From: an uncultured Gammaproteobacteria bacterium
Lineage (GTDB): Bacteria; Patescibacteriota; Microgenomatia; Levybacterales; GWA1-39-11
Assembly: GCA_964504535.1 (NCBI GenBank)
Contig: CAZDED010000007.1
Coordinates: forward strand, 12,353-76,352
Reading direction: 5' to 3'
DNA length: 64,000 nucleotides
A program made the translations under genes and the position numbers. The notes beneath the pieces are model-generated. The model had not been told where the DNA came from. It made no database searches and saw nothing but the letters and a program-made list of their open reading frames with translations. Positions 1,787 to 50,112 of this stretch are shown piece after piece; the stretch's first letter is position 1, and the number at the start of each line of letters is the position of its first letter.

Positions 1787-2161
1787 TTAGGAGGCCTCGG
1801 GGAGGCGTCCTCCCCATGCTCGCAGCTGCACGACACGCGCCTCGGATATCTCCAATTGGGAGGCCAACCTGACCTCCTGGATGACCTGGCGCGCCAATAG
1901 GTAAACTGCGTACTCGTCCCTGACTTCGTTGAGGCCAGAGCCGCCGAAGGGGACACCCTCGAGGTACACTCCCCCGTACCACGCGATCCGCCCCGCTCTG
2001 AGGCAAGAAGGCCTATTGGCCCACACCCTGGAAAGGGTTTCCTTGTGGTAGAGAGCTTCGAGCGCCTTCAGGCGCACGCTCTCGATGTACCGAGTGAGTT
2101 CATCGGACTCGCCGACGTAGTCCTCCCAGGGGAGGACTGATGACCATGTCGGATCATGCAT
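1787..2161 (-). CDS. hypothetical protein encoded in high-GC island 1
   Basis: 124-aa ORF with GC-rich codon usage, unlike the surrounding genes. No recognisable motif. Confidence 0.3.
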   Translation of the reverse strand: MHDPTWSSVLPWEDYVGESDELTRYIESVRLKALEALYHKETLSRVWANRPSCLRAGRIAWYGGVYLEGVPFGGSGLNEVRDEYAVYLLARQVIQEVRLASQLEISEARVVQLRAWGGRLPEAS

Positions 2162-2176
2162 GATGCCGGCCTCGAC

Positions 2177-2404
2177 TTACTCATAGGTGAGCGTCGGGTT
2201 GAGGACGGCAAACGCAAGCGCTTCCTTGTTGTCCTGCTTGAGAATAGCCTCGAAGGACTCCCTCAAGGTGTCAAAGACCCGATCGCAGAGCTCGCGGGTC
2301 AAGAAGAATAACTGGCTAGGCATGAACCTGCTCCTTTCTGGTGCCGCCTTAGATTGTGACGATTTTCGGTGCCAAACCGCGGCCTTGCTTTGAGATCCGA
2401 TCAT
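2177..2404 (-). CDS. hypothetical small protein in high-GC island 1 (start uncertain; internal Met gives 48 aa)
   Basis: The ORF lies 16 nt upstream of the 124-aa ORF in a different frame. It could be a separate small gene or a frameshifted N-terminus of the same gene. Confidence 0.2.
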   Translation of the reverse strand: MIGSQSKAAVWHRKSSQSKAAPERSRFMPSQLFFLTRELCDRVFDTLRESFEAILKQDNKEALAFAVLNPTLTYE

Positions 2405-2873: not shown

Positions 2874-2983
2874 TTTCTGCCCTATATTGATGCTTTCACT
2901 ATCAAATCTATATTCAGAGTACCAAAGCCTATCACACCTTGTCAATAGGGTAATTGGAGGAAAAAATATATTGAGGTAAAATT

Positions 2984-3148
2984 TGCATTTCAAGGAATGC
3001 GCGTATAAATTTTGCGGATGAAGTGAAGACGGGGGATTCCTCGCAAACTTGTCGAGGGGGGGGTGGAATCACGCACTTCACGAAGTAGCAAAATTAGCGA
3101 CCCTTGACATGCAAAGAGTCTTTGGTTCTTTCGTCGGCACGAAAGAAC
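2984..3148. repeat. conserved structured intergenic element, copy 1 (candidate ncRNA or 3'UTR element)
   Basis: About 165 nt, near-identical to 44867-45030. It has a long imperfect hairpin (AATTTTGC-GGATGAAGTG...CACTTCAC...GCAAAATT) and a second 9-bp hairpin (GGTTCTTTCG-TCGGCA-CGAAAGAAC). Compensatory changes between the two copies support a structured RNA. Confidence 0.5.
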
Positions 3149-3859
3149 TTAAAAAAACTTTTCTTTCAAAACCTTCCCGACAAAAATAGGAAGTGCCATT
3201 TGGCGCCTTGCCCTCCACGGTTGACGGATAAGTCTAAATGCCCATTCCATTCCCATGTCTCGAACTACTTTAGGAGCCCTTGGAACTTTTCCGGAAATAT
3301 AATCAAATGCCCCTCCTACTCCCATGGCTACAGTTACTTTTATATTGGGCAGGTTTTTTGCGATCCATCTTTCTTGTTTTGGAAATCCATATGCCACAAA
3401 AAGTATATCGATATGTGGCACAAAACCAATAGGAAAGTCTTCTGCAGCCAGTACAATTCTAAGACCAGGATACCTTTTTATTAAGCACTCGGCTGTTCTT
3501 TCTGCTACCATATCCCTACCACCTAATAATCCTATGGATAAGCCCTGCTTTGATGCTTCACTACAGAGTTCAAGCATCAAATCTACCCCTGTTATGCGTG
3601 CCTTTACGTCCTTTTTTAAGAATTTGCCAGCCATAAGCACACCTATTCCATCGGGGATACTTACCTCTGCCTTGTTGAGAATGTATTGATACTCTTTTGA
3701 GGCTGAAGCAAAAGTGATTATTTCGGGGTTTGGTGTTACAATATAGAACTTTTTATCCCTATTTTCGAGGGATTTTAGTATATACTCTAAGATCTGACTT
3801 TTAGATGCTGTTGTAACTGACGTTCCTAATATTTTTATGGAAGGCAATTCTATATTCAT
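3149..3859 (-). CDS. WecB/TagA/CpsF-family glycosyltransferase (N-acetylmannosaminyltransferase-like)
   Basis: 236 aa. Family-typical motifs are FYIVTPNPEII, SIPDGIGV and the C-terminal GFPKQERWI...GVGGAFDY. Confidence 0.75.
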   Translation of the reverse strand: MNIELPSIKILGTSVTTASKSQILEYILKSLENRDKKFYIVTPNPEIITFASASKEYQYILNKAEVSIPDGIGVLMAGKFLKKDVKARITGVDLMLELCSEASKQGLSIGLLGGRDMVAERTAECLIKRYPGLRIVLAAEDFPIGFVPHIDILFVAYGFPKQERWIAKNLPNIKVTVAMGVGGAFDYISGKVPRAPKVVRDMGMEWAFRLIRQPWRARRQMALPIFVGKVLKEKFF

Positions 3860-4290: not shown

Positions 4291-5310
4291 TTAATATTCA
4301 TTCCTATTAATAGACTTCTTGTATAGTTCCAAATTCTCTAAAGCAACTCCGGTTCCCCTTACTACACAGTATAAAGGATCCTCGGCAATGTATGCAGGAA
4401 CTCCTGTTTCACGAGTAATATATTTATCAAGATTTCGAAGAAGTGTTGTTCCCCCCGAAAGGACTATTCCTTTGTCGATGATGTCAGATGCCAATTCCGG
4501 TGGTGTCATTTCAAAAGTTTCGCGGATCGCACCAACCATTGCTTTTATGACCGGTTGGATAGCTTCGTTTACTTCGAATTCCGTTACCTCGGTAGAACGA
4601 GGTAACCCTGTGACACTATCTCTACCCTTGACTTCCATCTTTTTTGTCGAAGTTGAAGCTGGGATAGCGTTTGCCATAGTAACCTTTATTTCTTCAGCAG
4701 TCTGCTCTCCTACCATCAGATTGAATTTGCGTTTTATGTATGCTCCAATCGACTCTTCAAGCTTATCTCCAGCAACTCGAATTGATTTATGAACCACAAT
4801 TCCTCCCAAAGAAATGACTGCAACATCTGTTGTTCCTCCACCGGCATCAAGGATCATGTGTCCATTTGGCTGTGCTATTGGAATTTTGGCTCCAATTGCG
4901 GCGGCCAATGGCTCTTCTATGAGGTAGACTGAACGTGCTCCAGCGGCCATTGTTGCATCAAGCACTGCTCTTTTTTCGACCTGGGTGATGCCTGATGGGA
5001 TACACACCATAACCTCAGGCTTTATAAATCTACTTTTTCCCGTAACTTTCTCTATAAAGTATGCAAGCATAGCCTCAGTTATGACGTAATCTGCTATGAC
5101 TCCGTCTTTCAGTGGCCTCGTTGCAACAATATTACCGGGAGTTCTACCCAACATCTCTTTTGCTTCACTACCTACTGCAACGACTTTATTATCATCTGCT
5201 CTGACAGCAACGACTGTTGGTTCATTGAGCACTATTCCCCGACCCGCAACATACACGAGAGTATTTGCGGTACCAAGATCTATTCCAATACGTTTGTTAA
5301 ATATGTTCAT
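4291..5310 (-). CDS. mreB: rod shape-determining actin homologue MreB
   Basis: 339 aa. N-terminus GIDLGTANTLVYV, nucleotide-binding DAGGGTTD, and C-terminal RGTG are the MreB actin-fold signatures. Confidence 0.9.
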   Translation of the reverse strand: MNIFNKRIGIDLGTANTLVYVAGRGIVLNEPTVVAVRADDNKVVAVGSEAKEMLGRTPGNIVATRPLKDGVIADYVITEAMLAYFIEKVTGKSRFIKPEVMVCIPSGITQVEKRAVLDATMAAGARSVYLIEEPLAAAIGAKIPIAQPNGHMILDAGGGTTDVAVISLGGIVVHKSIRVAGDKLEESIGAYIKRKFNLMVGEQTAEEIKVTMANAIPASTSTKKMEVKGRDSVTGLPRSTEVTEFEVNEAIQPVIKAMVGAIRETFEMTPPELASDIIDKGIVLSGGTTLLRNLDKYITRETGVPAYIAEDPLYCVVRGTGVALENLELYKKSINRNEY

Positions 5311-5343
5311 AATCTAGTTTTTAGTTATTAGGAAAAGGAATAG

Positions 5344-5700
5344 TTACTGTTTATTTGAGCTCATTCGATTTAACATTTTACAAATCTCAGTTAATATTTT
5401 CTCAATACCAATATAGTCTACTTCTTCACCATAATTCAATCTTTTTGCTAACAACAATTGTGTTTCTAATTCAAGTGCTGACCCATAAGCTATCTTGTAA
5501 AAATGCTTATAGTCTTTTTCTGACTGTCTTCCAAACCCTTCTGCTATATTTGAAGGAATACTTATAGCAGCTCTTTTTAATTGAGATATGAGTCCAAATT
5601 GCTCATCTTTTGGGAATTGTTTTGTAAGGATATATACAAGTTCTACCAACTCAATTCCTTTCTGCCAAACAATTAATTCTTTATACGAAGTTATCTTCAT
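5344..5700 (-). CDS. four-helix-bundle protein (23S rRNA intervening-sequence protein family)
   Basis: 118 aa. The pattern EQFGLISQLKRAAISIPSNIAEGFGRQS...Y..FYKIAYGSALELETQL matches the TIGR02436/PF05635 family. This family is common in CPR genomes. Confidence 0.7.
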   Translation of the reverse strand: MKITSYKELIVWQKGIELVELVYILTKQFPKDEQFGLISQLKRAAISIPSNIAEGFGRQSEKDYKHFYKIAYGSALELETQLLLAKRLNYGEEVDYIGIEKILTEICKMLNRMSSNKQ

Positions 5701-5875
5701 ATCTAACTTGTCCTACTTCAAACAACTATTCCTATTCCTGACAACTGATAACTATATCGCAAGATATTACTACTGCATCATTTCTGGCTGCTATATTTAC
5801 TATATCATCTTAACTAAATTAAATCGATAGGTGCATGTTGCGCTCAAGCTAAAAAGTGTATACTATTGGTAATAC

Positions 5876-7078
5876 ATGCCTAAAAAAACCCTTTTAACAA
5901 CTGTCGTGGTTCTTCTTCTTGTAAGCGTCATTGCGTACGCCTTTATACTCTATGGAAAGGGATACCGTCTCAATTTTTCAGGCAAGGGAAATAAGATTTT
6001 GGCAGGAACCGGTCTTCTTGTTCTGACAAGTACCCCGAATGGTGCACGCGCATACATTAATGACAATTTAACAACGGCAACAGATGACACCATCAACCTT
6101 CCTCCCGGAGAATACGATGTAAAAATTGAGAAAGACGGATACTACCCATGGAAAAAACATATTGTTCTTAAAAATGAAGCTGTAACTAAAACAGATGCGG
6201 TTCTTTTCCCCGTAGCACCAAAGCTTGAAGGAGCAACCGTTCTTGGAGCTGAAAATCCAGTCGTTGATCCGACCGGAGGCCTGATAGCATATGAGGTTTC
6301 CTCCTCCTCTGCTGAGAATAATGGGCTATATATTCTAAATTTAGGCAAAGGGTCGATTCTCCCGTTTGGAAGTTCTCCCCGCCTTATCGCTTCAGATAAA
6401 TTCGATAACTTCTCAAAAGCGAGAATTGAATTCTCACCCGATGGACAACAGCTGTTAGCATCAATCTCTACTCCCTCACAGGACAGGATTTATCTTCTTA
6501 AAACCGATACGTTAAATGTAGAGCCTCAAAATGTTACGTTTACCGTTGAGCAGGTCAGAAAACAGTGGTCTGCCCTCAAAATTCAGCTGGATCAAAAATT
6601 TGCCCTTGCTCTTCCATCTGCCTCTCGCAAATTTATACTGGAAAACTTTGAAAAGGTTCAACTTTCAGCTGAGGGGGACAAACTGCTCTACATTGCTTCT
6701 CAGAGTGCAACGATGCCTCATTTCATAAAACCATCACTCCCATCAACCAACTCAACTCCCGAAACCAGAAATATAGTAAAAGGAGCGGCTTATGTATACC
6801 AGATAAAAGAAGACAAGAATTACCTTCTCTACCAACCTACTGATGGGGAAGTATTACCTAATTTTATCTGGCATCCATCCTCTTCACACGTAGTATTCAT
6901 ACAGAACAAAAGAATATTTGCGATGGAATATGATGGGGGAAATAAGACTACTTTATACGCTGGACCATTTGATCCTACTTTTCTATATGCATGGCCTGAT
7001 GGATCAGGACTTATTATTCTTACTAATTTCAATGATGAAACAGTCCCAGCTAACCTCTACCGCATTGGCCTGAGGTAA
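5876..7078 (+). CDS. PEGA-domain protein with C-terminal beta-propeller-like region
   Basis: N-terminal TM/signal, then a PEGA motif (GARAYINDNL...LPPGEYDVKIEKDGYYPWKKHI). The C-terminal part has TolB-like repeats (WHPSSSHVVF, AWPDGSGLII). Confidence 0.55.
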   Translation: MPKKTLLTTVVVLLLVSVIAYAFILYGKGYRLNFSGKGNKILAGTGLLVLTSTPNGARAYINDNLTTATDDTINLPPGEYDVKIEKDGYYPWKKHIVLKNEAVTKTDAVLFPVAPKLEGATVLGAENPVVDPTGGLIAYEVSSSSAENNGLYILNLGKGSILPFGSSPRLIASDKFDNFSKARIEFSPDGQQLLASISTPSQDRIYLLKTDTLNVEPQNVTFTVEQVRKQWSALKIQLDQKFALALPSASRKFILENFEKVQLSAEGDKLLYIASQSATMPHFIKPSLPSTNSTPETRNIVKGAAYVYQIKEDKNYLLYQPTDGEVLPNFIWHPSSSHVVFIQNKRIFAMEYDGGNKTTLYAGPFDPTFLYAWPDGSGLIILTNFNDETVPANLYRIGLR

Positions 7079-7120
7079 GTGGACTAAGGGGCGCAAAGCA
7101 AGCTTCACGCCCCGGTCAGG

Positions 7121-7579
7121 TCAGTTCTCTCGGGATTCCTCCGTTGGATGTTTCCATCGCCCATTTACCCATTCGCTGGGATCGACTCTCACCTTGGGGT
7201 GATAATCCTCATCCAGAAAACGTTGGCGTGCGATTTGAAACTGCCGCCTTTCGTCGTTCTGCCTTTCGGCATACAGACGGCAGATACGGTGGGTAACTCC
7301 CATGCATATCAGCGAAGCTGTGAAGCTTGCGATAAATATCACGGAATACCACCCGGACTCCTGGCTGGTGATCAACCCGCCCACTATGGCTGCGGCCGTG
7401 GGCCCGCCAAAGAAGACGCATACCTGAAGGATTTGGTATTTCCACTGCATCCTTCTGCCAGGTGTACGGTAGCCCATTGCCCCCGACAGCATGCAAAGCA
7501 AGCCGATCAGGATTATGGTGCTAGCCGCCAACTGGAATTCCGGCGTGCTGTAGAAGAGCGCGCTTTGATCCTCAGTCAC
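7121..7579 (-). CDS. hypothetical membrane protein in high-GC island 2
   Basis: 152 aa with 3-4 predicted TM segments. GC-rich codons. It follows the 180-aa ORF with a 3-nt gap, suggesting an operon. Confidence 0.4.
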   Translation of the reverse strand: MTEDQSALFYSTPEFQLAASTIILIGLLCMLSGAMGYRTPGRRMQWKYQILQVCVFFGGPTAAAIVGGLITSQESGWYSVIFIASFTASLICMGVTHRICRLYAERQNDERRQFQIARQRFLDEDYHPKVRVDPSEWVNGRWKHPTEESREN

Positions 7580-7582
7580 GTA

Positions 7583-8125
7583 CTAATCCGTTCCTTTTGT
7601 TGTGAGGAAACCCTCACTTGTATGCGGAAGTGTGCCGACGTAGATGACAATCCGCCCCCGGTAGTCGACGTACTGATCTATCTGTTTCTTGGCAGCTTCC
7701 GCTGCCACGAATTTGACGCTGTACGTCGTCTTGAGTTGGTTCTCATCCGAGGATGCTTGCGCATCCTTATTGTGGGCTTGGTAGACAACCTCCTTGGCTA
7801 CCTCGAACATCGTGTCGAGGAGCTGAGGATCCGGGCTGAAGCCCGGTGCTACGCAGGTCTCAAAGACCAAGCCACGGATAGTAACAACGGTACCATCCTC
7901 TCCCTGAACCGTGATGGTCTCAGAGAGTGGTTTTGTGACGGCTTTTGCGTTGACGCAATCGGCAGGAGCTGCTCCTACCGCAATTGCGGTGTTGGTGTTC
8001 TCCTCTTGGTTGGCCAGAGCCATTAGGGCGATGCCCGTTGTGGCAAGCACTGCCAAGAAAAGGACTGTGATGAAGGTGCGGGGTCCAAATGACATGATGG
8101 TTCCTCCCATAGAACCGCTAGGCAA
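7583..8125 (-). CDS. hypothetical secreted protein in high-GC island 2 (likely start at internal MSFGPRTF...)
   Basis: A signal-peptide-like N-terminus (FITVLFLAVLATTGIALMALA) is followed by a soluble domain. GC-rich codon usage. Confidence 0.4.
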   Translation of the reverse strand: MPSGSMGGTIMSFGPRTFITVLFLAVLATTGIALMALANQEENTNTAIAVGAAPADCVNAKAVTKPLSETITVQGEDGTVVTIRGLVFETCVAPGFSPDPQLLDTMFEVAKEVVYQAHNKDAQASSDENQLKTTYSVKFVAAEAAKKQIDQYVDYRGRIVIYVGTLPHTSEGFLTTKGTD

Positions 8126-8390
8126 AGCTTTGGGCTCTGCGATTTGTTAACTGACCTGTTGTTAATGTACAGACGCAGGACGCGTCTCTGATATGCAATA
8201 ACAATCAGGCCGCGCAATGCGCCAAGACATATATTATACCAAAAAAAACAACCAACATCAAAAACTATGGGACTAAATTCTTTACATTTAAGTCACAGAA
8301 TAATTTTTTGAAGCAAAATTTTCACAGGATATTATTAGCTTCAAATTAGTCTCACTTGATACTTATTTCCAAATACTTGATACTAAAGGT

Positions 8391-9343: not shown

Positions 9344-10807
9344 ATGGACTTATTGTATTCGTTTAGCTTCAAAAGAGGGCTTCTTGTTCTTTGTGTTTTG
9401 CTGTTTTTCTTCACGATAACCACCAAACAAACTCATGCACTCTCATTCTCTTCAGCAAGTGCTACTCTCACAACCTCACGTCCATCAGCTGCAAGCCCAT
9501 TCAGCTCTGTTGGAGCTGTTAATGATAGCGTTCTAAATATTTTCAACAATGGCTCTCGATTTTTGGCTTCAGATTCAGCCAAAGTCGTACGGGCAACCGG
9601 TACTTCTAATACTGGTCTCAATGTTGCCTCACAGTCAGCCGATCTTCTCAAAGTATTTCTGACAAATGGACTTTCAACGCTTGCCGGTGCGGGAGCTGAT
9701 ATACTTGTTGTTCCTGTTACAGCTATGCATCAAGTTGGTTTTACCCCAAATTCGCCAATACCAAGTGGAGGAAAAATAATAATTTCGTATCCTGGAACAT
9801 TCCAAAATACTGCATCCCCTTCAGCAACAACATTTTCATTCAACAATCTTGTATCTGGCAATGTTAAATGTTTTCCGACAACTGCTTGTAGCGGCTCCAT
9901 CACTATCTCATCCAGTGGTATTCCAACTATTACCTTAGTCACGGGCGCTATACAACCTGCAGGTACTGTTATAACAGTATTTATCGGTTGCTCTGCAATT
10001 ACTGGATCAGCATGTACTACGCAGGTTCCAACTCTTATAAATCCTACAAAGACAAATTCCACTGCCGCTGGCGCTGATATTTGGAGAATAGGAGTGGCTT
10101 CAACAGATGCAAGCAACAATCCAATTGATAATTCAACTATCGCTATCGGTACGATAGAATCAGTAACCGTCCGTGCCACTATTGACCCAAGTCTCACATT
10201 TATCATTAGTGGTGTTACAGATGGACAAGCAGTCAACACTGGAAACACCACTGGATGCCTACAAGTTGAAACAACAAATACTGGTATAACTTCAACTGCC
10301 ACTGATGTTGGACTTGGAAGTCTTGCAAGCGTACCATCAGCAGGTACAAAACTTAACAATATTGCAGCACAACTTTTGGATGTCAGGACTAATGGAGCAA
10401 ATGGATACTCTATTACTGCAACTTCATCAGGGCCTCTTTCAAACCCTTCAACTGGTTTTTCAGTCAATAGTAGCACCACACCGTTGGTTTTCCCTTCAAC
10501 AGGCCATTTCTTTGGAATGCATCCCTGTGGCGCAGATGTAGATAGAATAAATTGGATTCAGGGTTCTACTTCACAACTTTGCAACACATATGTTCCAGGT
10601 GCAAATCCTGTCTGTAAATACGCATGGCCTAATACTGCCCCTATGCTCGTTGCTCAAAGATCAGCTGGTCCAATTGGTACTGGTGCATCATGTGCATCGG
10701 GTGGCTGCGGACTCACTTCAGTATCCTATGCTGCTACACAAGATGTCTCTCTTCCCCCTGGAATCTATCAATCAGTTATCACGTACGTAGCAACGCCGTC
10801 TTTTTAG
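9344..10807 (+). CDS. secreted WxL-like domain protein (Tyr variant), paralogue A
   Basis: 487 aa with an N-terminal signal peptide. A mid-domain GANGYSITATSSG motif and the C-terminal PPGIYQSVITYVATPSF are positionally equivalent to the two WxL motifs of Firmicutes WxL domains, with Y in place of W. Paralogous to 12001-13458 and 27319-28122. Confidence 0.55.
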   Translation: MDLLYSFSFKRGLLVLCVLLFFFTITTKQTHALSFSSASATLTTSRPSAASPFSSVGAVNDSVLNIFNNGSRFLASDSAKVVRATGTSNTGLNVASQSADLLKVFLTNGLSTLAGAGADILVVPVTAMHQVGFTPNSPIPSGGKIIISYPGTFQNTASPSATTFSFNNLVSGNVKCFPTTACSGSITISSSGIPTITLVTGAIQPAGTVITVFIGCSAITGSACTTQVPTLINPTKTNSTAAGADIWRIGVASTDASNNPIDNSTIAIGTIESVTVRATIDPSLTFIISGVTDGQAVNTGNTTGCLQVETTNTGITSTATDVGLGSLASVPSAGTKLNNIAAQLLDVRTNGANGYSITATSSGPLSNPSTGFSVNSSTTPLVFPSTGHFFGMHPCGADVDRINWIQGSTSQLCNTYVPGANPVCKYAWPNTAPMLVAQRSAGPIGTGASCASGGCGLTSVSYAATQDVSLPPGIYQSVITYVATPSF

Positions 10808-10907
10808 TTATTAGTTATTAGGAATAGGACTAGTTACTAAAAAGGGCTGGACAAGAAGAATTAAATACGTATAAACTAAGAACTATTCCTGATAACTAAT
10901 AACTAAC

Positions 10908-11906: not shown

Positions 11907-12000
11907 TATTGCTTGATCAATCTCAAATTACTCCTAATCCTGACAACTAGTAACTAATTTCATTGACAAATAGAACCGATATTGTCTTAAATGGTATAGG

Positions 12001-13458
12001 ATGAAATTTTCGGCAAAAATTATTTTTGTCTTTATTTTATGTGGTTTTTATCTTGCCACAGGAACCGCTTATGCCGATGACTTATCAAATGCAAGCGTAA
12101 CCCTCTCAACCTCACGACCCTCGGCTTCAAGTCCATTATCCGCAGCCGCCACTTCCTCAGACGGAATAATTTCGGTATTCAATAATGGATCCCGATATTT
12201 AGCTTCTGATTCAGCACGGATTATTCAAGGATCAAGTGGTCTTCAAATAGTTGGGGGGCTTCCGGTAGCTTCCCAGTCAGCGTCGCTAACAAGCGTCTAT
12301 CTAGGTTCAAGTGTGGGAGTCGCAGCAGGTGCTGGATCTGACATATTGCAAGTACCAATAACAGCAATGCACACGGTTACCTTTACAACGATAAGTTCGG
12401 TACCCAATGGAGGGAAAATAATAATTACCTACCCAGGCTCGGGCAATAATTCCGCTTCTCCTTCTGCTACAACATTTGCTTTTAACGGTCTTCCAAATTC
12501 AACTGCAGCGGTTAAAGCAGCCAACGCTACCGATTGTAACGCTGTGACCGTGAGTGCACCAACAATTACCTGCACGACAAGCGCAATCATCCCAGCGGCG
12601 ACTCAGGTGACAATTTTTATCGGATGCACAGCTGTTAGTGGATCATGTACTACTCAAGCTCCTTATTTGATAAATCCAACAAAAAGCAATCAATCAGCCG
12701 GAACAGCTGATTCTTGGAGAATTCAAGTAAGCACTGCAGATGGCTCCAATAATGTTATTGATTCGCGTACTCTTGCTGTTGGCACAATTGAATCGGTTAC
12801 TGTCCGTGCAAACGTCGACCCATCCCTCACTTTTACCATTGCGGGTATTAATAATGGTGTTGCGGTCAATACGAATAATACGACGGGGTGCCTGCAGACA
12901 GAGCTAACAAGTACTGGTATAAATGCAACTGCAACAGATGTTAATATGGGCACGCTAGCTAACTCACCAAGTGCTACCAATACAACTGTAAGTAATATTT
13001 CTGCCCAATTACTAACAGTGACTACAAATGGAGCTACAGGATATGTGGTGACAGCGACATCGTCTGGACACCTGAGAAATCCTTCTACGGGATTTTTCCT
13101 GACGGATGCAGCTACCCCACAAGCTTTCCCAGCCTCAGGAGCAAATTTCTATGGATTTCATGCCTGTGGCCTTGATACGTATAGCGCTGGAATAGGTACT
13201 ACCTTCTGGAATTCAAGTGCCTCAGATACTAATTGCAATACTTATATAACAGGTTCCTCGGGAAATATTTGTAAATATGGATGGCCTACAACTTCTACGC
13301 CAATTAATATTGCTTCTGACACAACGGGACCAATAGGAAATGCTGTTGTTGCGGGAAGCGGCTTAACCTCAGTGAGCTATGCAGCTGGTGCTGATCCAGC
13401 AGTACCTCCGGGACAATACACGACTGTTGTGACTTACGTAGCAACTCCTTCATTCTAG
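12001..13458 (+). CDS. secreted WxL-like domain protein (Tyr variant), paralogue B
   Basis: 485 aa with a signal peptide. GATGYVVTATSSG and the C-terminal PPGQYTTVVTYVATPSF match paralogue A. The N-terminal motif LSTSRPSASSPLS...VFNNGSRYLASDSA is also shared with A. Confidence 0.55.
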   Translation: MKFSAKIIFVFILCGFYLATGTAYADDLSNASVTLSTSRPSASSPLSAAATSSDGIISVFNNGSRYLASDSARIIQGSSGLQIVGGLPVASQSASLTSVYLGSSVGVAAGAGSDILQVPITAMHTVTFTTISSVPNGGKIIITYPGSGNNSASPSATTFAFNGLPNSTAAVKAANATDCNAVTVSAPTITCTTSAIIPAATQVTIFIGCTAVSGSCTTQAPYLINPTKSNQSAGTADSWRIQVSTADGSNNVIDSRTLAVGTIESVTVRANVDPSLTFTIAGINNGVAVNTNNTTGCLQTELTSTGINATATDVNMGTLANSPSATNTTVSNISAQLLTVTTNGATGYVVTATSSGHLRNPSTGFFLTDAATPQAFPASGANFYGFHACGLDTYSAGIGTTFWNSSASDTNCNTYITGSSGNICKYGWPTTSTPINIASDTTGPIGNAVVAGSGLTSVSYAAGADPAVPPGQYTTVVTYVATPSF

Positions 13459-13499
13459 TTGTCAGTTGTCAGGAACACGAATAGTTAATGAGATTGTAA

Positions 13500-17413: not shown

Positions 17414-17791
17414 TTAGTTTCTATGTACATTCTCTAAGATGCTTTTTACTTTCTTAAGTAAATCTTCATGTGATATCTGATACTTCAAAATATAATCAAT
17501 TGCTCCTCTATTGAGCGCTTCCTTTACTAATTCGTCATGAGAAAAATTAGTAAGCATGGCAACTGGTATACCTTTTATAGCCTCGTCTTCCTTTAAAGCC
17601 CTCAGAACATCATTTCCACTCATATCAGGCATCATTTGATCCAAAAGTATAAGATCAAATTTTTCCGACTTTGCAGAGGCCAACGCTCCTTGACCGTTAT
17701 TGGCTATAGTTACCTCATACCCTCCCTGCTTCAAAACAGTCTCAAATACTGTAGCAGTATCAAGCTCGTCATCAACAAGAAGAATTTTCAT
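17414..17791 (-). CDS. single-domain response regulator (REC only, CheY-like)
   Basis: 125 aa. ILLVDDE, the phospho-acceptor LILLDQMMPDMSG, and the conserved Lys region; no output domain. Confidence 0.85.
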   Translation of the reverse strand: MKILLVDDELDTATVFETVLKQGGYEVTIANNGQGALASAKSEKFDLILLDQMMPDMSGNDVLRALKEDEAIKGIPVAMLTNFSHDELVKEALNRGAIDYILKYQISHEDLLKKVKSILENVHRN

Positions 17792-17967
17792 ATTCTAGTT
17801 TTTAGTTGTCAGGAATAGGAATAGTTAAATTTTGATAACTGCTCCTCATTCTAATAACTAGTACCTATTTTAGGTTACCCGCTATCCACAAAAAATGCAA
17901 GAGGCTTGAATTAATAATTACCCTATAATATTGATCTTTGAGGTAAAATGATGTAAAATAGGGCCCT

Positions 17968-42659: not shown

Positions 42660-44828
42660 ATGAGTAAATCTGTCTTATCACTTTTATCATCAGTTGCCAC
42701 GATTATTACAGCAACAATATTTCTCTTGTTCCCTCTATTCTTTCTTACCATAACTACTGACTTCTTTACATTCCCAAAGCAAATACTAATAGTCATCGGC
42801 TCACTTTTGCTCTTGGTTCTTTGGGGGATTAAAGTAGTTGTTGAAAAAAGAATTACTTTTCTTCTCAACCCACTCAATTTACCAATCCTTCTTTTTGGGC
42901 TGGTTCTTATTCTTTCGAACTTCTTTTCGCTTTCATCTCAAGATGCAGTCATTCAATCAGTTCCAGTTATTCTTCTTTGCGTACTTTTCGTCACGACAGT
43001 CAATTTTATTAGCGAAAAGTCATCTTTTACAATAGTTGTCACATCTCTTATTATAGGAAGTGCTCTTTCTACCCTACTTAGCATCTTTGCTTACTTTAAT
43101 ATTTATCTTCTCCCCTTTGAGGCTATCAAAAATCCTAGTTTTAATACACATGGTTCACCTATCCAGTATGCAGCCTATTTGATCCCACTTCTTATATTAT
43201 GTGCTGCTTCTCTCCTGGATATCGTTAAAAAAGGAAAGATGAAGTCAATTACAAAAGACTACTCATATATCTTGCAGTTAGTTTCTGCTGTTATTTTTGC
43301 GATTGGTCTTGGAATAGTAATCTTCCAAATAGCTACAGCACCTCAAAAACCAATTCTTTTACCCTTCAATCACGGGTTTCAGGTAGCATTTGCAACTATC
43401 AGTCAAGATGTTCCCCAAAGACTAGCCCAGTCGTTACTTCTTGGAAGCGGATATGGAACGTTCTCTACCGACTTCACAAGGTATGTATCCCCAGCTTTCA
43501 ATACTCTTCCCTTCTGGAATCTGACTTTTGCTTTCTCTTCCTCTTATGTTCTGGAACTATTGGCAACTACTGGTATATTAGGACTTTTCACCTTCGCCTT
43601 CATATTCCTGAATTTCTTAAGAAGCAAAGCTGCACCATCAAATCCGCTATTCCTTGCGACACTTGCGGTCTTTATCATGACACTGCTTGTACCATTTTCG
43701 TATTCATTAGTCTTTCTTCTTTTTGCTCTTTTAAGCTTATTCGTCTGCTATAGAGCAATTGCAAAAGCGAAAGGTTTTGATAGTATAGTTATCAATTTAG
43801 TGGCTTTGCGCCAAGGGCTTATCTCTGTCACTGAAGAAGGAACAAAAAAGAATAAAGAGAATCTGGTTTTGCCTACTGTTGTTTTAGCTATTTCAATACT
43901 TATTTCTGTTTTTGTGCTTTTCTACCTGACTGGAACGGGGTCAACACCAAGAAAAGGATATCTGTCACTTATTAGCTCTGATATTAAATTTGCAAAATCA
44001 TTCTCACAAGAAGCTTTAAGGTCTGGTACTCAAACATACAACCTGGAGACACAAGCCATTTCAGAATATCCTTACCGGAGTGACTACTATAGACTTTTCT
44101 CACAAATCAATCTTGCTCTTGCAGCTAACATAGTGACTGCCCAACAAGGCAGAAAACCATCAGAAGAAGTACAAAACAACATAATTGCCCTTCTTCAACA
44201 AAGCATAAATAGCGCCCGTCAAGCTGTTACCCTCTCACCTCTTTCATCGGTCAATTGGCAAAATCTAGGCCAAATTTACAGAAATCTCATCGGGGTTGGT
44301 CAAAATGCAGAACAATTCGCTGTGGCCTCATACAATCAAGCATCAACCCTAAATCCATCAAACCCTGGTCTTAGAATCGAACTTGGAGGTATTTACTATC
44401 AATTGAAGCAATGGGATTTGGCCCAAAATCAGTTCAATATTGCGCAGCAATTAAAGAACGACTATCCAAATGCATACTACAATCTAGGTCATGTGTATGA
44501 GGAGAAAGGTGATCTCCAAAATGCTCTAGCTCAATACAAGATGGTTGCTCAACTCGTTGCCAATGATAAGCCTAATTTGGATAAAATAAATACCGAAATA
44601 AAAGCACTTGAGGACAAAATTGGAGCTGCAGAGGCTCAAAACACAGAGGCAAAACAACCCACAACAGATACTACCCCACTTGGAGTAGACAAACCTCAAA
44701 CGGAATTTCCTCCAAAAGATCCTAAAGAAACAATTCCGGCTCCTCCAAAAGGTGTTGTGACTCCAAAACCAACAGCTACTGTGTCACCAACCCCTACGGT
44801 TGAGGCATCTCCAACCCCAGTTAACTAA
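42660..44828 (+). CDS. O-antigen-ligase-like (Wzy_C/PglL-type) polytopic membrane protein with C-terminal TPR repeats and Pro/Thr tail
   Basis: 722 aa. About 12 TM segments N-terminally, then TPR units (AYYNLGHVYEEKGDLQNALAQY) and a TPKPTATVSPTPTVEASPTP tail. The architecture is common in O-antigen-ligase-family proteins of CPR and Firmicutes. Confidence 0.5.
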   Translation: MSKSVLSLLSSVATIITATIFLLFPLFFLTITTDFFTFPKQILIVIGSLLLLVLWGIKVVVEKRITFLLNPLNLPILLFGLVLILSNFFSLSSQDAVIQSVPVILLCVLFVTTVNFISEKSSFTIVVTSLIIGSALSTLLSIFAYFNIYLLPFEAIKNPSFNTHGSPIQYAAYLIPLLILCAASLLDIVKKGKMKSITKDYSYILQLVSAVIFAIGLGIVIFQIATAPQKPILLPFNHGFQVAFATISQDVPQRLAQSLLLGSGYGTFSTDFTRYVSPAFNTLPFWNLTFAFSSSYVLELLATTGILGLFTFAFIFLNFLRSKAAPSNPLFLATLAVFIMTLLVPFSYSLVFLLFALLSLFVCYRAIAKAKGFDSIVINLVALRQGLISVTEEGTKKNKENLVLPTVVLAISILISVFVLFYLTGTGSTPRKGYLSLISSDIKFAKSFSQEALRSGTQTYNLETQAISEYPYRSDYYRLFSQINLALAANIVTAQQGRKPSEEVQNNIIALLQQSINSARQAVTLSPLSSVNWQNLGQIYRNLIGVGQNAEQFAVASYNQASTLNPSNPGLRIELGGIYYQLKQWDLAQNQFNIAQQLKNDYPNAYYNLGHVYEEKGDLQNALAQYKMVAQLVANDKPNLDKINTEIKALEDKIGAAEAQNTEAKQPTTDTTPLGVDKPQTEFPPKDPKETIPAPPKGVVTPKPTATVSPTPTVEASPTPVN

Positions 44829-44866
44829 TAGCTAATATTACTATCACCGATTTTTGGTTATATTGT

Positions 44867-45030
44867 TTGCATTTCAAGGAAGCGCGCCCGAATTTTTCGA
44901 ACGAAGTGAAGACGGGGGATTCCTCGCAAATTTGTCGAGGAGGGGGTGAAATCACACACTTCACGAGTGAGAAAAATTAGCGACCCTTGATATGCAAGAG
45001 GCTTTGGTACTTTCTCCGGCCAGAAAGTGC
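44867..45030. repeat. conserved structured intergenic element, copy 2
   Basis: Aligns to 2984-3148 at about 85% identity. Substitutions in both hairpin stems are compensatory (AATTTTGC/GCAAAATT becomes AATTTTTC/GAAAAATT; GTTCTTTCG/CGAAAGAAC becomes GTACTTTCT/AGAAAGTGC). Confidence 0.5.
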
Positions 45031-45093
45031 AATAAATAAATAGACTAGTTAAGAAACCCAGAGGGTCGTCACTCAATCTACTGAGTCATATAT

Positions 45094-46269
45094 TTAATGA
45101 AGGAAGCTTAATGGGTCGTAGAAAGTTCCACCACTTCTCACCTCAAAATGAAGATGTGCACCTGTTGTTCTACCTGTTAGACCTACCCATCCTACTACGG
45201 TTGAACCAGCAACAACGCTTTGACCGGAACTAACATTCAACCCACTCATGTGCGCATATAAGGTTTGGTAACCGTTATTACCTGTCACAATAACATGTGT
45301 TCCATAACCATAATTCCAACCGCCAGCAACTGCATAACTGACAGTACCACTTGAAGCCGCAACAATCGGTGTTCCAATTGGAGCACCGATATCAATTCCT
45401 TGATGATACCAACTATAGTATTGATTCATCGTTCCTTGTATTGGCCATGTAAATCCAGCTCCCGATACGGAAACCGATCCTGAAGGTATAAAAGTACGCC
45501 GCGCTATATAAGTTGGAGCAGACTTTGGTGGGACCCCTTCGGGTACGATTAGGGTTTGACCTATGACAAGTGAAAAGGTCTGTGGGTCTGCAAAGTCGTT
45601 GAATGGGAAGTCGACTATAGCCTGAGCATTTGAACTATACTTCTTGGCTATAGTGTAAATAGTGTCTCCTGAAGTAACTTTATGCGCTACTCCACTCACA
45701 GGCAATATCTGCAATGTATCTCCTACTGTTATATCATCATCAGTTAGATCATTCTGCCAACGTACTGTATCCTCAGATACTGAAAATTTCTTTGCTATAC
45801 CAGACAATGTGTCACCCTTTTGAACAGTATAAGTAATAATTTCTGAGCGTGGTTTATCAGAAAGCTGAGTATGAAAGACGTCTTGAGGGGCAAGACTCTG
45901 CTTTTGCTCAGAGATGTCTTGCGCAAATGAAAGAAGGTTCTTGTCTTTAGAGAAAGGATTTTGGTCTGTTATAAATGGTGAGATAAGAACTCCGAAAGAA
46001 AGTACTGCCATAGCTGCTACATGGAGAAAAAATCTATTGCGCTTTCCACGCTTTATCAAAATTGACTTGACGACTGTATTCTTGTTCTTCTCAAAAATAT
46101 TTGAGAAGAACATCACTTTGTCTTTGGTATAAGTCGAAAGGAATAAAAGAAAACTTCCAAACTCGCTTTTGAGGCCAGAAAGTGCTTTTACAGCATTTTT
46201 GAAGAACGAGGGTTTTTTTGCTCCTGTATGAACTTTGCCCAATGAGGGGGCCATCTTGTGACGATTCAT
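45094..46269 (-). CDS. LysM-domain M23 family metallopeptidase
   Basis: 391 aa. Two LysM repeats (YTVQKGDTLSGIAKKF; HKVTSGDTIYTIAKKY) and M23 motifs HQGIDIGAP and GTHVIV...YAHMS. Confidence 0.8.
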   Translation of the reverse strand: MNRHKMAPSLGKVHTGAKKPSFFKNAVKALSGLKSEFGSFLLFLSTYTKDKVMFFSNIFEKNKNTVVKSILIKRGKRNRFFLHVAAMAVLSFGVLISPFITDQNPFSKDKNLLSFAQDISEQKQSLAPQDVFHTQLSDKPRSEIITYTVQKGDTLSGIAKKFSVSEDTVRWQNDLTDDDITVGDTLQILPVSGVAHKVTSGDTIYTIAKKYSSNAQAIVDFPFNDFADPQTFSLVIGQTLIVPEGVPPKSAPTYIARRTFIPSGSVSVSGAGFTWPIQGTMNQYYSWYHQGIDIGAPIGTPIVAASSGTVSYAVAGGWNYGYGTHVIVTGNNGYQTLYAHMSGLNVSSGQSVVAGSTVVGWVGLTGRTTGAHLHFEVRSGGTFYDPLSFLH

Positions 46270-46314: not shown

Positions 46315-47532
46315 CTATTCCTTGCCTAATCCGCTGAGGAATTCTTCATTGTTTTCAGTTTGTTGTAGCCTCTCGATAAGAATTTGAGTACGCTCATCAG
46401 GTCCTAATACATCCATCATACGTCTCATTGTCGCAATCTTCTTGTAATCCTTCTCAGATAACAATAGTTCTTCTTTTCTAGTACCTGATCTTTCAATATT
46501 AATTGAAGGGAAGATGCGACGTTCTGCAAGTCTACGGTCAAGATGAAGTTCCATATTTCCGGTTCCCTTGAACTCTTCATAGATAAGATCATCCATTCTG
46601 CTTCCGGTATCAACAAGTGCAGTTCCGATAACAGTTAGTGACCCACCCTCTTCGCATTTTCTGGCTGCTCCAAAAAATCTCTTTGCTGGCCATAATGCTG
46701 CTGGGTCAAATCCTCCCGTAAGAGTTCTTCCTGAAGGCTCAATTGAAAGATTATATGCTCTTGCAAGACGAGTAATAGAATCAAGTAAAATAACGACATC
46801 CGCTCCACCCTCAACGAGTCTTTTGGCGCGATCAAGTGCAATTTCTGCTGCATTGGTTTGAGCCTCAGGTGGTTCGTCGAAATTTGAGGCTACAACCTCA
46901 CCCTTAACTGATCGCGAAATGTCAGTTACTTCCTCAGGTCTTTCTCCAATAAGACATGCCATAAGATGAACTTTGGGGAAATTTTCAGCAATTCCTGCTG
47001 CTAGATCCTTTAGAATAGTAGTTTTTCCTGCTTTAGGTGGGGATACTATCATTCCTCTTTGACCAAACCCAATAGGACTTACGATGTCGATAATGCGAGA
47101 TGACAATGGCGTTTTGCCGGTAGAAAGAACAAGCTGCTTGATAGGATATATAGGAGTCAGGTCTTCAAAATAAACTCTTTTGACGCCCTCTGCAGCTATT
47201 TTTCCGTTAATTTTCTCTATCTTCAAAAGTCCATAATATCTCTCGTTGTCTTTTGGAGGACGCCCAAGACCTTCTACAGCATCTCCATTACGAAGCCAAA
47301 AACGTCTGATTTGGGAAGAAGATATATAAATGTCTTTTTCGGATGGTCTGAATTTTGGACGTAAAAATCCGTGTCCTTCAGGCTTTATATCCAAAATTCC
47401 AGCTACTACTTCAGTGGCCTGGTCTCCGCGGGGTCTTCCATACTCTCCTCTGTCTTCAACCACGGAAGATGCCTCCACAGGTTGATTTGCAGATTCATCA
47501 ATGTCTTCTTGAGATTTCTTTACTGGGCTCAT
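46315..47532 (-). CDS. rho: transcription termination factor Rho
   Basis: 405 aa. Cold-shock-like RNA-binding domain, Walker A GQRGMIVSPPKAGKTT, and Q/R loops. Confidence 0.9.
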   Translation of the reverse strand: MSPVKKSQEDIDESANQPVEASSVVEDRGEYGRPRGDQATEVVAGILDIKPEGHGFLRPKFRPSEKDIYISSSQIRRFWLRNGDAVEGLGRPPKDNERYYGLLKIEKINGKIAAEGVKRVYFEDLTPIYPIKQLVLSTGKTPLSSRIIDIVSPIGFGQRGMIVSPPKAGKTTILKDLAAGIAENFPKVHLMACLIGERPEEVTDISRSVKGEVVASNFDEPPEAQTNAAEIALDRAKRLVEGGADVVILLDSITRLARAYNLSIEPSGRTLTGGFDPAALWPAKRFFGAARKCEEGGSLTVIGTALVDTGSRMDDLIYEEFKGTGNMELHLDRRLAERRIFPSINIERSGTRKEELLLSEKDYKKIATMRRMMDVLGPDERTQILIERLQQTENNEEFLSGLGKE

Positions 47533-48513: not shown

Positions 48514-48938
48514 GCGTATACTCGTTAGGCTTGAGGTTAGAGAAGGCAGCTTTCATAAATTCTCCCCCAAATTTCCAAAAGCTCTCTTCCCTGATCTTGA
48601 AGATTAGGAAAGTAGTATGAAGCAGACTATCCAATAGCTGGATAACTTTGCTTATAAGTACCACTTTGTTCTTTGACAATTGGTATACAGAAAAATTATT
48701 TCGGTTGACACTTTGGTGTCGGATTGAGCGTTCCGTTGGCATGAAAGCTGCACAACGGGCCGCTCAACCCGGCACTGTAAGTTACAACCGGAAAAACAAC
48801 ACTAAGGAGAAGAACATATTGGAGGCTCGATCTCCGCCCACCATTCCCCAACCGCAAGGCTGGGTCAAAAGAATGTAAGCGGTATCGTCCGCCTACATTC
48901 TTCCACTAAGTCAGAGTTCAGTTCCGGAGGAAAACACC

Positions 48939-49949
48939 TTGTCCAAGACTTGGATCGCTATCACCTCCATCGTTCTGACGATGGCCGTGATGATCGGTGG
49001 AGGCTGGGTTATCGCCCACCTTCCTAGCACGTCCGCCAACGCGGACGGCCCCGACGGAAGCCCCACGGCTTCCGCCACCGCGACCGTCACTGCGACGGCC
49101 ACCCAGACGCCCACTCCGGGCACCGACAAGAAGGACCAGCCGCCGGTGCCAAGCGCCGTCTGCCGGCTCGACAAGGTGGGCACATTCGCCGAGGTATCCT
49201 CGGCTGGCCCACAACGCATCGAAGTTGGCGGGGGGGGAACCCAGCACGTTGACTTCTATCCTGACCGCGGTGTCCCATCCGTTTCCTACATCGTAGGACC
49301 CGGTAAGGTCATAGTGGCACATGGATTTGGGAGCATCTGGGAGGGCAACCTTCCGGACTGTGCTCAGTTCAAATGGGTCGCCGATGCGACCGAATACGCT
49401 CTCGGCAACGTGGGCAACAATCGGCCGGACCGGCTTACGAAAGGTCACAGCGGCATCGTCATCGACATGAGGAGCAATCCTCCTGAAATCGTTGCGAACG
49501 CTCTCGGCCTCAACACGGCGCAGATCGTAAATCTGCTCGCAAAGCACGTGAAGGGAATGGAACTCACCGATAGCCAGAAGCAAATGCTGATGACTATCCG
49601 GATGGCCGCCGGCGTCACAACGCCTGCCGCCGGATCCAATACTGCTACGTGCAGCGAAGGTACCCGCGCCGACCACAAGCCGGCCAAGGATACCGCGTGG
49701 GACATTACGCCTACAGACTCCTTCCGCGTGGTCAACGTCTGGTCCAACCAGCGTGACCCCAACCTGGGAGACCACAAGCTCCTTCTCAAGCCTGGTGAGA
49801 GCGCAAGCCTCATGGGCGGCGGCGGTGCCGCCTGGTCCTTCCCGGCAAGCTGTGGCGACGCTGCCCAGGCCGCCTATGAGGCCAATACGAACCCGGCCAT
49901 AAGCCTGGCTCAGTACAAGGCCTACGTCGAAAAGGGCACCATGCCCTAG
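48939..49949 (+). CDS. hypothetical membrane-anchored protein in high-GC island 4 (N-terminal TM, Thr/Pro/Ala linker, C-terminal domain)
   Basis: 336 aa with strongly GC-rich codons (about 65% GC region). The strand was chosen because it gives TM, linker and globular domain; the antisense ORF looks like noise. Confidence 0.4.
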   Translation: MSKTWIAITSIVLTMAVMIGGGWVIAHLPSTSANADGPDGSPTASATATVTATATQTPTPGTDKKDQPPVPSAVCRLDKVGTFAEVSSAGPQRIEVGGGGTQHVDFYPDRGVPSVSYIVGPGKVIVAHGFGSIWEGNLPDCAQFKWVADATEYALGNVGNNRPDRLTKGHSGIVIDMRSNPPEIVANALGLNTAQIVNLLAKHVKGMELTDSQKQMLMTIRMAAGVTTPAAGSNTATCSEGTRADHKPAKDTAWDITPTDSFRVVNVWSNQRDPNLGDHKLLLKPGESASLMGGGGAAWSFPASCGDAAQAAYEANTNPAISLAQYKAYVEKGTMP

Positions 49950-50112
49950 ACATGAGTACCTCTGTATACCAAGCTCGGGATGCCCCCTACTGGGGGGCAT
50001 CCCGGCACAAGAGGGGAGGCGCTAACACCGCCTTCGAAGAACAAACCGGGCTTGCCCGGCAGAATGCTTCGGAGTCGATTGCCTCCCCCCTTTCCCCCTG
50101 TACATAAATATT

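Follow-up and report, generated by a model that had tools for sequence, protein, structure and literature searches.

The 64,000-nucleotide stretch of DNA analysed here (contig CAZDED010000007.1, positions 12,353 to 76,352 of the forward strand), hereafter the window, carries a structured intergenic element in two copies, A and B. Copy A (2982-3148, + strand) is situated between a divergent helix-turn-helix (HTH) gene and a convergent WecG/TagA gene (3149-3859, minus strand; Pfam PF03808, E 3e-48). Copy B (44866-45030, + strand) is situated between a gene for a 722-aa TPR protein (42660-44828, + strand), which stops 38 nt before the copy, and a convergent M23/LysM peptidase gene (45094-46269, minus strand), which stops 64 nt beyond it. 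A sequence-only reading of the window had placed the element at 2984-3148 and 44867-45030, correct within 1-2 nt of the exact limits. It had described the copies as about 85% identical, and indeed blastn of copy A against the window aligned 2982-3145 to 44866-45027 with 85.4% identity over 164 nt (E 2.3e-48). The covariance model R1 scored copy A with 212.5 bits (E 4e-41) and copy B with 203.7 bits (E 3e-39). Neither blastn nor a repeat search nor R1 revealed a third copy in the 64-kb window.

Read 5' to 3' on the + strand, the predicted RNA consists of an irregular rod of about 135 nt (helices P1 to P4), an apical three-way junction, a linker, the hairpin P6 and an A-rich tail. In copy A, delimited by R1 and by folding, the rod extends from 2982 to 3115 according to pair counts. 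It is built from P1 (7 bp, 2982-2988/3109-3115), P1b (6 bp, 2990-2995/3102-3107), P2 (3 bp, 3000-3002/3097-3099), P3 (8 bp, 3008-3015/3088-3095) and the invariant P4 (6 bp, 3023-3028/3076-3081). The apical domain (3029-3075), nearly invariant across the eight copies of the family described below, begins with the J4/5 strand ACGGGGGA (3029-3036), continues with the P5 hairpin (3037-3059; 7 bp, loop CAAACTTGT) and a G-run, and ends with the small hairpin GTGGAATCAC (3063-3072) followed by GCA. The linker GAGTCTTTG and P6 occupy 3116-3148, where 3125-3133 pairs with 3140-3148 around the loop TCGGCA. The A-rich tail of this copy (3149-3158) overlaps the stop and last codons of the WecG/TagA gene. 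In copy B the apical domain (44912-44958) reads ACGGGGGA, P5 hairpin, GGGGG, GTGAAATCAC and ACA; linker, P6 and A-rich tail span 44999-45042, with P6 at 45007-45015/45022-45030 and the loop CCGGCC.

Across the family the junction is composed of the strands ACGGGGGA and (G)AGGGGG, the P5 hairpin with the consensus loop CAAACUUGU and a small GUG-AAAU-CAC hairpin. P6 comprises 9-10 bp and closes a loop NCGGNN with invariant CGG, and A-rich sequence lies 3' of P6 in all copies. Conservation peaks at the apex and is lowest in the stems and internal loops, a pattern that would be the look of a functional RNA core. One member, L008 (loci outside the window are designated by L numbers), contains an extra 32-nt insertion that forms additional hairpins in the junction region, as is typical of a tolerated variable arm.

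The fold of copy A has a predicted energy of -61 kcal/mol. Both copies form much more stable folds than dinucleotide shuffles do, whichever strand is taken; the z scores of the two strands were -5.1 and -6.3 for copy A, and -3.1 and -3.2 for copy B. The compensatory changes between the copies that had been claimed from the sequence alone were found as described. In the outer stem AATTTTGC/GCAAAATT becomes AATTTTTC/GAAAAATT, a G-C to U-A exchange. In the 3' hairpin GGTTCTTTCG/CGAAAGAAC becomes GGTACTTTCT/AGAAAGTGC, which comprises a U-A to A-U flip, a G-C to U-A exchange and a change of U-A to U-G.

Further members were sought with R1 and in related genomes, as had been proposed. An exact-match scan with the invariant 20-mer GACGGGGGATTCCTCGCAAA against 185,579 species-representative genomes returned four real loci and one chance match; the 20-mer occurred in 3 of the 185,579 representatives, with one or two matches per metagenome-assembled genome (MAG). 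The MAGs are incomplete, and the copy number per genome is a lower bound. L004, from MAG CAZAJO01, is 98% identical to copy A and shares its HTH/TagA synteny. L005 and L008 are two copies in the single MAG CAZKYX01, L006 belongs to a Candidatus Levyibacteriota MAG, and a two-block pattern scan added L009 and L010 on Joint Genome Institute (JGI) metagenome contigs. The labels of the MAGs disagree: CAZAJO01 and CAZKYX01 are listed as 'Gammaproteobacteria' and JAUSNA01 as Levyibacteriota. Together with the window the family amounts to eight distinct copies from six sources, six of the copies coming from three MAGs and two metagenome contigs beyond the window. In the structured core they share 80-98% identity pairwise. 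Identical copies of the window organism were present in three Logan assemblies; sequencing runs that contain the organism are SRR12487035, SRR12487045 and SRR12487046. Two pattern scans of IMG/VR and blastn searches of phage and plasmid collections gave zero matches.

The secondary structure was obtained by RNAalifold on six sequences and by realignment of all eight with R1. Both agree on the helices, and the recovery by RNAalifold is independent. Standard pairs occupied 97.5% of the pair cells of the eight sequences, compared with 44-54% when the 3' partners were slid by 1-3 columns. Changes on both sides were found at 10 pairs (0-1 in the slid controls) and in 19 cells (0-2 in the slid controls), and the observed values for pairing and covariation were reached by none of 500 shuffles. 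Helices 1-4 of the rod showed 97-100% pairing, and P1b, P2 and P3 contain double changes: in L005, U-A/C-G of P1b is swapped to C-G/U-A, a G-C pair of P2 becomes A-U, and one position of P3 shows four pair types. P5 holds a single compensatory change, G-C to A-U in L009, and P6 has both-side changes at 5 of its 10 pairs. Compensatory substitutions in several helices thus exceed the controls, and the element is a structured RNA under selection. The stems of the six further copies are intact despite many double changes, in agreement with the earlier view that base pairing was selected and that the copies do not stem from a recent duplication.

The placement on the minus strand did not hold. In the accepted helices the + strand of the window shows 18 G-U cells and 1 A-C cell, and without one invariant and one doubtful pair the ratio is 7:1. 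When the minus strand is folded, C-A mismatches appear at five pairs. Since G-U outnumber A-C, the RNA is assigned to the + strand; the selected strand is the window +, either as RNA or at least as a selected single strand. Consequently the 3'-UTR reading for the wecB-like and M23 genes fails, and the neighbours in other genomes are unrelated. Both copies do lie past the stops of minus-strand genes, 0-2 nt from that of TagA and 64 nt from that of M23. This part of the claim was right; the role as a 3'-UTR element derived from it was not.

Transcription signals were inspected on both sides of the RNA. Upstream of copy A lies a candidate sigma-70-like promoter, TTGTCA-17-AAAAAT (2939-2967, + strand), a weak match with 9 of 12 consensus positions that ends about 15 nt before P1. 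A co-directional gene stops 16-117 nt upstream of the RNA in five of the six contexts with known upstream sequence, and copy A is the one context that requires a promoter of its own. On both strands P6 is flanked by U-rich sequence before and A-rich sequence after it. Because A-rich rather than U-rich sequence comes next, P6 is not a canonical terminator. An intrinsic terminator or 3'-UTR element was also rejected on the grounds that no U-tract exists on the transcribed strand and that terminator scans flag neither P6 nor the end of the rod.

The neighbouring genes differ from copy to copy. Copy A and L004 lie between the divergent HTH gene and the convergent TagA gene, copy B between the TPR gene and the convergent M23 gene. 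L006 lies between SpoU and rmuC, L005 between genes for a membrane protein and a Zn protease, L008 between a small open reading frame (ORF) and a convergent PIN-TRAM gene, and L009 between a histidine phosphatase gene and rmuC; L010 precedes an XRE-HTH gene. For copy A, copy B and L008 the gene downstream is convergent. The neighbours differ between genomes and these three contexts provide no co-directional downstream gene; therefore the element is independent of any particular neighbouring gene and is not cis-regulatory.

Some minor features were seen close to the RNA. The sole recurring downstream neighbour is rmuC, found beyond the RNA in the unrelated sources of L006 and L009; between the two lies an extended -10-like sequence, GTGTGATA(G/A)A (L006:3866-3890; L009:185-207, minus strand). 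Short palindromic inserts, GGATCCCGGGTCAAGCCCGGGATGAC in L004 (1765-1795) and GATCCTGAGACGAGCTCAGGATGAC in L008 (5300-5330, minus strand), adjoin the RNA on its 3' side, and the one in L004 lengthens the TagA frame by five codons. The 13-nt string AGGCTTTGGTACT in the linker and P6 of copy B (44999-45011) is the exact reverse complement of window 2918-2930, a conserved stretch upstream of the HTH gene beside copy A; with E about 0.4 the match may be due to chance.

Comparison of orthologous sites revealed a patchy distribution. At site A, relatives with the order mreB-TagA-spacer-HTH-bacA and TagA proteins 88, 86 and 76% identical are without a copy in the 95 kb searched. Past a shared CACCTTGTCAA their spacers hold unrelated DNA, including a decaying ORF of 58 codons. 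At site B, the TPR/M23 spacer, R1 found zero copies in L018, L020-L023 and L028-L033. This spacer holds a 91-aa GIY-YIG gene with flanking inverted repeats in L028 and L029 (M23 97% identical) and likewise in L018 (M23 88%), a PF05635/Avd-like gene in L020 and L030 (M23 83-85%), and unrelated sequence of 218-308 nt in L021-L023 and L031-L033 (M23 77-80%). In the closest relative, CAZAJO01, site B (on the contig of L004) carries the linker and P6 (33 bits, E 2e-5) behind a different rod of about 135 nt, designated type X. A hidden Markov model (HMM) of P6 alone matched only beside rods in about 500 kb of window and loci. P6 therefore belongs to the element family rather than serving the lineage as a generic terminator, and the family is modular.

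The degree of identity along site A is uneven. Between the window and CAZAJO01 the nucleotide identity is 90.9% in the HTH gene, 99.1% in the spacer upstream of the RNA, 98.2% in the RNA, 89.2% in TagA and 87.0% in mreB, and the two RNAs agree even in their variable internal loops. As the cassette reaches 98-99% compared with 87-91% for the flanking genes, and the variable loops do not differ, the data point to a recent exchange of the cassette rather than to constraint alone. Copies from different genomes are up to 94-98% identical (L005 and L006 94%, despite different contexts), and the two copies within one genome, at 80-85%, are less alike than copies across genomes. Between the window and CAZKYX01 the RNA is 82-86% identical, RadA 69% and TagA 52%. 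The element is an accessory one that resides in intergenic hot spots, where close relatives have other small inserts, and it was exchanged or replaced recently.

Several observations concern the other occupants of these sites. The type X rod (L024:10100-10240, minus strand; also L025 and L026) folds into a long hairpin with a z score of -2.1, and a faint similarity to the window RNA is seen in its 3' strand (GAAUGAGAAAUCGAACG compared with GAGUGAGAAAAAUUAGCGAC). The GIY-YIG gene (L018:11176-11624, L028:5020-5440) lies within inverted repeats, GTCATTCTGAACGTAGTGAAGAATC ... GATTCTTC-N-CAGAATGAC, after which comes a G-run. The rod and the ends of the GIY-YIG cassette share GAACGNAGTGAAGA and GACGGGGG; these strings of 8-14 nt are not significant and are taken as a coincidence. 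Solitary PF05635/Avd-like four-helix-bundle genes were located at window 5344-5700 (minus strand), L018:9563-9928, L020:11328-11696, L028:3417-3779 and L030:5172-5540. Their sites vary by strain (upstream of mreB, rho-M23, M23-TPR), they resemble hopping mini-genes, and no reverse transcriptase was seen near them. Between rho and M23, CAZAJO01 and several Logan contigs have a further gene, of the sigma-70 family (512 aa; L024:7257-8795); the window is without this gene, and rho (46315-47532) directly follows M23.

None of the 4227 models of Rfam 15 matched the RNA at its gathering score or at E<=10, the models for 6S RNA, the signal recognition particle RNA, ydaO and ribozymes included. The gathering scan of the whole window returned only a tRNA-Thr, and scans at E<=10 of stretches of 451 and 173 nt gave snoRNA and microRNA noise far under threshold. 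Ten related loci yielded one tRNA only. A literature search for 6S RNA and other structured RNAs of bacteria of the Candidate Phyla Radiation (CPR) turned up nothing relevant. Hence the RNA family, without a match in Rfam 15 or the literature searched, is new, as the sequence-only reading had suspected.

With a probability of about one half, the two copies are genes, or gene-sized cassettes, of a non-coding structured RNA, not described before, in Levybacteria-like CPR bacteria; it is encoded on the + strand and acts in trans. The analysis established an element with a structure under selection on the + strand, non-coding, free of a fixed neighbour, accessory and exchanged. We have moderate confidence that it is a real, + strand, accessory structured RNA, and low confidence in the identity of its partner, be it a target, a protein or a ligand. 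Transcription would start at a promoter of the RNA itself, or else the upstream transcript would be extended at its 3' end. Acting in trans, the RNA may present its conserved purine-rich junction, a binding or catalytic surface, on the long helix as a handle; the partner of this surface could be a small ligand, a protein or nucleic acid rich in C/U. P6 might be a shared module that confers stability, recognition or mobilisation.

Several points weigh against this interpretation. Two pairs at the top of P3 are broken in L010, and the small 3-bp hairpin (P5') has two non-pairs. Only eight related sequences, 80-98% alike, were available, and the alignment in which pairs were counted was model-fitted. 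G-T wobbles are possible in single-stranded DNA too, and the strand asymmetry is compatible with a hairpin element acting at the DNA level. A conserved promoter was not found upstream of the copies, the 9/12 match being confined to copy A, and a canonical terminator was not found after P6. The window holds no target complementary to the G-rich strands, and no partner protein was identified among the 25 of 55 Pfam families listed for it. Exact-pattern scans cannot gauge the spread of diverged relatives, and type X suggests a family broader than the one sampled.

The main rival is a selfish palindromic DNA element, similar to miniature inverted-repeat transposable elements (MITEs), enterobacterial repetitive intergenic consensus (ERIC) sequences or Rickettsia palindromic elements (RPEs), or a single-stranded DNA hairpin. 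A transposase or nuclease encoded elsewhere would recognise the inverted repeat and P6 as DNA, and transcripts would be incidental. We regard this as unlikely, and it is the alternative to be taken most seriously. It would suit the patchy distribution at hot spots shared with GIY-YIG and Avd-like mini-genes, the convergent gene ends adjoining both window copies, the 14-nt terminal inverted repeat formed by P1/P1b, and a cassette much closer to its relative than the flanks are; moreover, several contigs end at or near the element, and the same P6 is carried on a different rod. However, a genome holds one or two copies, and the 64 kb of the window hold two at 83-85% identity in place of many near-identical ones. 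Copies within a genome are the most diverged (80-85%), the opposite of a transposition burst. The apex and not the termini is most conserved. In all copies conservation runs past the end of the P1/P1b inverted repeat (3115) through linker and P6 to 3148; the conserved unit as a whole reaches 45 nt past the repeat. Neither target-site duplications at the junctions nor a clean empty site were seen, the spacers being replaced wholesale. The 25 of 55 Pfam families listed for the 49 window ORFs include neither a transposase nor a reverse transcriptase, and, as stated above, the phage, plasmid and viral collections contained no match.

It is improbable that the RNA is a self-cleaving ribozyme of a new type or an orphan aptamer for a ligand, with the invariant purine-rich junction as catalytic or binding core on a variable helical scaffold. 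The junction nucleotides are flanked by helices that covary or can be expanded, as in L008, which tolerates its 32-nt hairpin insertion. Self-cleaving ribozymes of bacteria typically occur patchily and in variable regions, and so does this element. In addition, GGGGGA...GGGGUGAAUC-like strings presumably resemble conserved strands of the ydaO cyclic di-AMP (c-di-AMP) riboswitch. Against this stands the lack of any Rfam ribozyme or riboswitch match, ydaO included, at E<=10, and the G-runs have no C-rich partner strands inside the element. A classical riboswitch or other cis-acting leader was rejected in view of the inconsistent downstream genes.

A bolder proposal, to which we give slightly less credence still, would extend the modular character of the family. 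The elements may be RNA-only mobile cassettes (variable rod, shared CGG-loop 3' hairpin and A-rich tail) that spread between CPR genomes via a structured single-stranded intermediate, as a bacterial analogue of short interspersed nuclear elements (SINEs), and are mobilised in trans by reverse transcriptase/Avd-type or nuclease machinery encoded elsewhere. Alternatively, a new ribozyme or ribonucleoprotein could have the invariant G-rich junction as its core.

Even less likely is a housekeeping regulatory RNA that escapes the Rfam models in CPR bacteria, for instance a 6S-like binder of RNA polymerase present in every genome at shifting positions and with two paralogues as in Bacillus. The length of about 170 nt, the rod shape, the single-stranded bubble near the tip and the two paralogues per genome would fit, and the identity of the RNA between the window and CAZKYX01 is at the level of a core RNA. 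Neither RF00013 nor a related model matched at E<=10, however, and the layout of two long helices is missing: 6S RNAs have a long terminal helix, and beyond the G-rich bubble this RNA has only the 7-bp P5 and the 3-bp hairpin. In strains with a flanking M23 97% identical the site is taken by another rod or a GIY-YIG gene, and the scarcity of the invariant 20-mer among species representatives also speaks against a housekeeping role.

The reading as a minus-strand 3'-UTR or terminator element of the WecG/TagA and M23 genes was rejected as very improbable: the copies do follow minus-strand stops and the minus strand folds well too, but the G-U/A-C asymmetry favours the + strand, no U-tract comes after either hairpin on the minus strand, L005 and L006 would on this reading be antisense to both neighbours, other copies follow unrelated genes, and orthologous TagA and M23 genes of relatives lack the element. 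A small protein gene is practically out of the question, although 46-49-aa ORFs overlap both copies (a 47-49-aa antisense ORF, MKCVI(P/S)PPPRQ(V/I)CEESPVFT..., or a 46-aa + strand ORF), since the variable columns fall 9/7/11 on codon positions 1/2/3 of the antisense ORF with no third-position excess, the longest frame differs among copies, and 1-nt indels and the 32-nt insertion of L008 break the frames.

Two further candidates were tried and rejected. The Avd-like gene at 5344-5700 had prompted comparison with a template repeat/variable repeat pair of a diversity-generating retroelement. The mismatches between the copies are T/C, G/A and G/T in both directions and not adenine-specific, both copies are intergenic, and the Avd-like gene stands alone upstream of mreB. 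Attachment (att) sites of a 42-kb island bounded by the two direct repeats were dismissed because the interval holds core genes, mreB, leuS, S1 and comEC among them, and relatives keep the gene order without the repeats.

In kind, the element stands between orphan structured small RNAs (sRNAs) and palindromic intergenic elements. With orphan structured RNA motifs (the 'motif' families of Rfam) it has in common covariation, a conserved core, the lack of an assigned function, a narrow lineage and variable neighbours; unlike them it is a swappable hot-spot cassette outside all Rfam 15 models, and its family is modular, in that one 3' hairpin can be combined with another rod. ERIC, RPE, Neisseria Correia and RUP/BOX elements and MITEs are likewise long imperfect hairpins of 100-200 bp between genes, often at convergent ends, and patchy between strains. 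The window family differs in its one or two diverged copies per genome, in conservation that is higher at the apex than at the ends, in an obligatory hairpin outside the inverted repeat and in a G-U pattern that points to RNA or a single strand. 6S RNA (SsrS) is similar in its length of about 170-190 nt, its rod-like form, its unpaired bubble and the possibility of two paralogues, and dissimilar in that the window RNA matches no 6S model, has a very short helix beyond the bubble and is absent from orthologous sites in near-identical strains. The intervening sequences (IVS) of 23S rRNA and the PF05635 'IVS protein' genes offer another parallel: IVS are extended hairpins with a horizontally patchy occurrence between strains, and PF05635/Avd-like genes fill the same hot spots in relatives, with one in the window itself at 5344-5700; the window element, unlike IVS, lies outside rRNA genes. 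Trans-acting sRNAs, independent or derived from 3'-UTRs, are comparable in the position 16-117 nt after a co-directional gene in five of six contexts, with one context in need of its own promoter, whereas the window RNA is far more structured and shows neither a U-tailed terminator nor seed-target pairing.

The RNA is of interest since the genomes of CPR bacteria are tiny and hardly any of their regulatory RNAs are known from experiments, so that a well-supported, covarying family outside Rfam offers a concrete target for metatranscriptomics and biochemistry. What stands out most is that the element trades places with GIY-YIG and Avd-like mini-genes and that different rods share one 3' module. 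At the same two intergenic sites, among strains with flanking proteins 88-97% identical, an RNA-only unit of about 200 bp is swapped with these mini-genes or with another rod on the same P6. This alternation makes it testable how small non-coding elements move between CPR organisms, and the cassette behaviour also hints at a possible binding partner of the conserved junction. If the RNA is merely another orphan sRNA, it is still a worthwhile entry for RNA family databases.

Elsewhere in the window, which has a GC content of about 39%, GC-rich islands were noticed at 48900-50010 (62%), 7000-8130 (53%) and 1736-2660 (about 45-50%). They contain long ORFs on both strands without a Pfam, PADLOC, PHROG or Rfam match and are mutually dissimilar. 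The site at 48.9-50 kb holds different unannotated genes in relatives and is another variable spot. A GC-rich gene of 178 codons (1787-2404, minus strand) is interrupted by an in-frame TAA at 2177-2179; L004 reads this position as Q (YEQVEAGIMHDP), and the window carries a nonsense mutation or a pseudogene. Finally, the motif TAGTT(A/G)T(T/C)AGTT..AGGAA(T/C)AGGAATAGTTA occurs at least six times, in both orientations, between genes and near gene ends or starts (5303-5346, 5724-5754, 10793-10836, 11916-11956, 13444-13487 and 17784-17836), and could be a promoter, operator or terminator signal.

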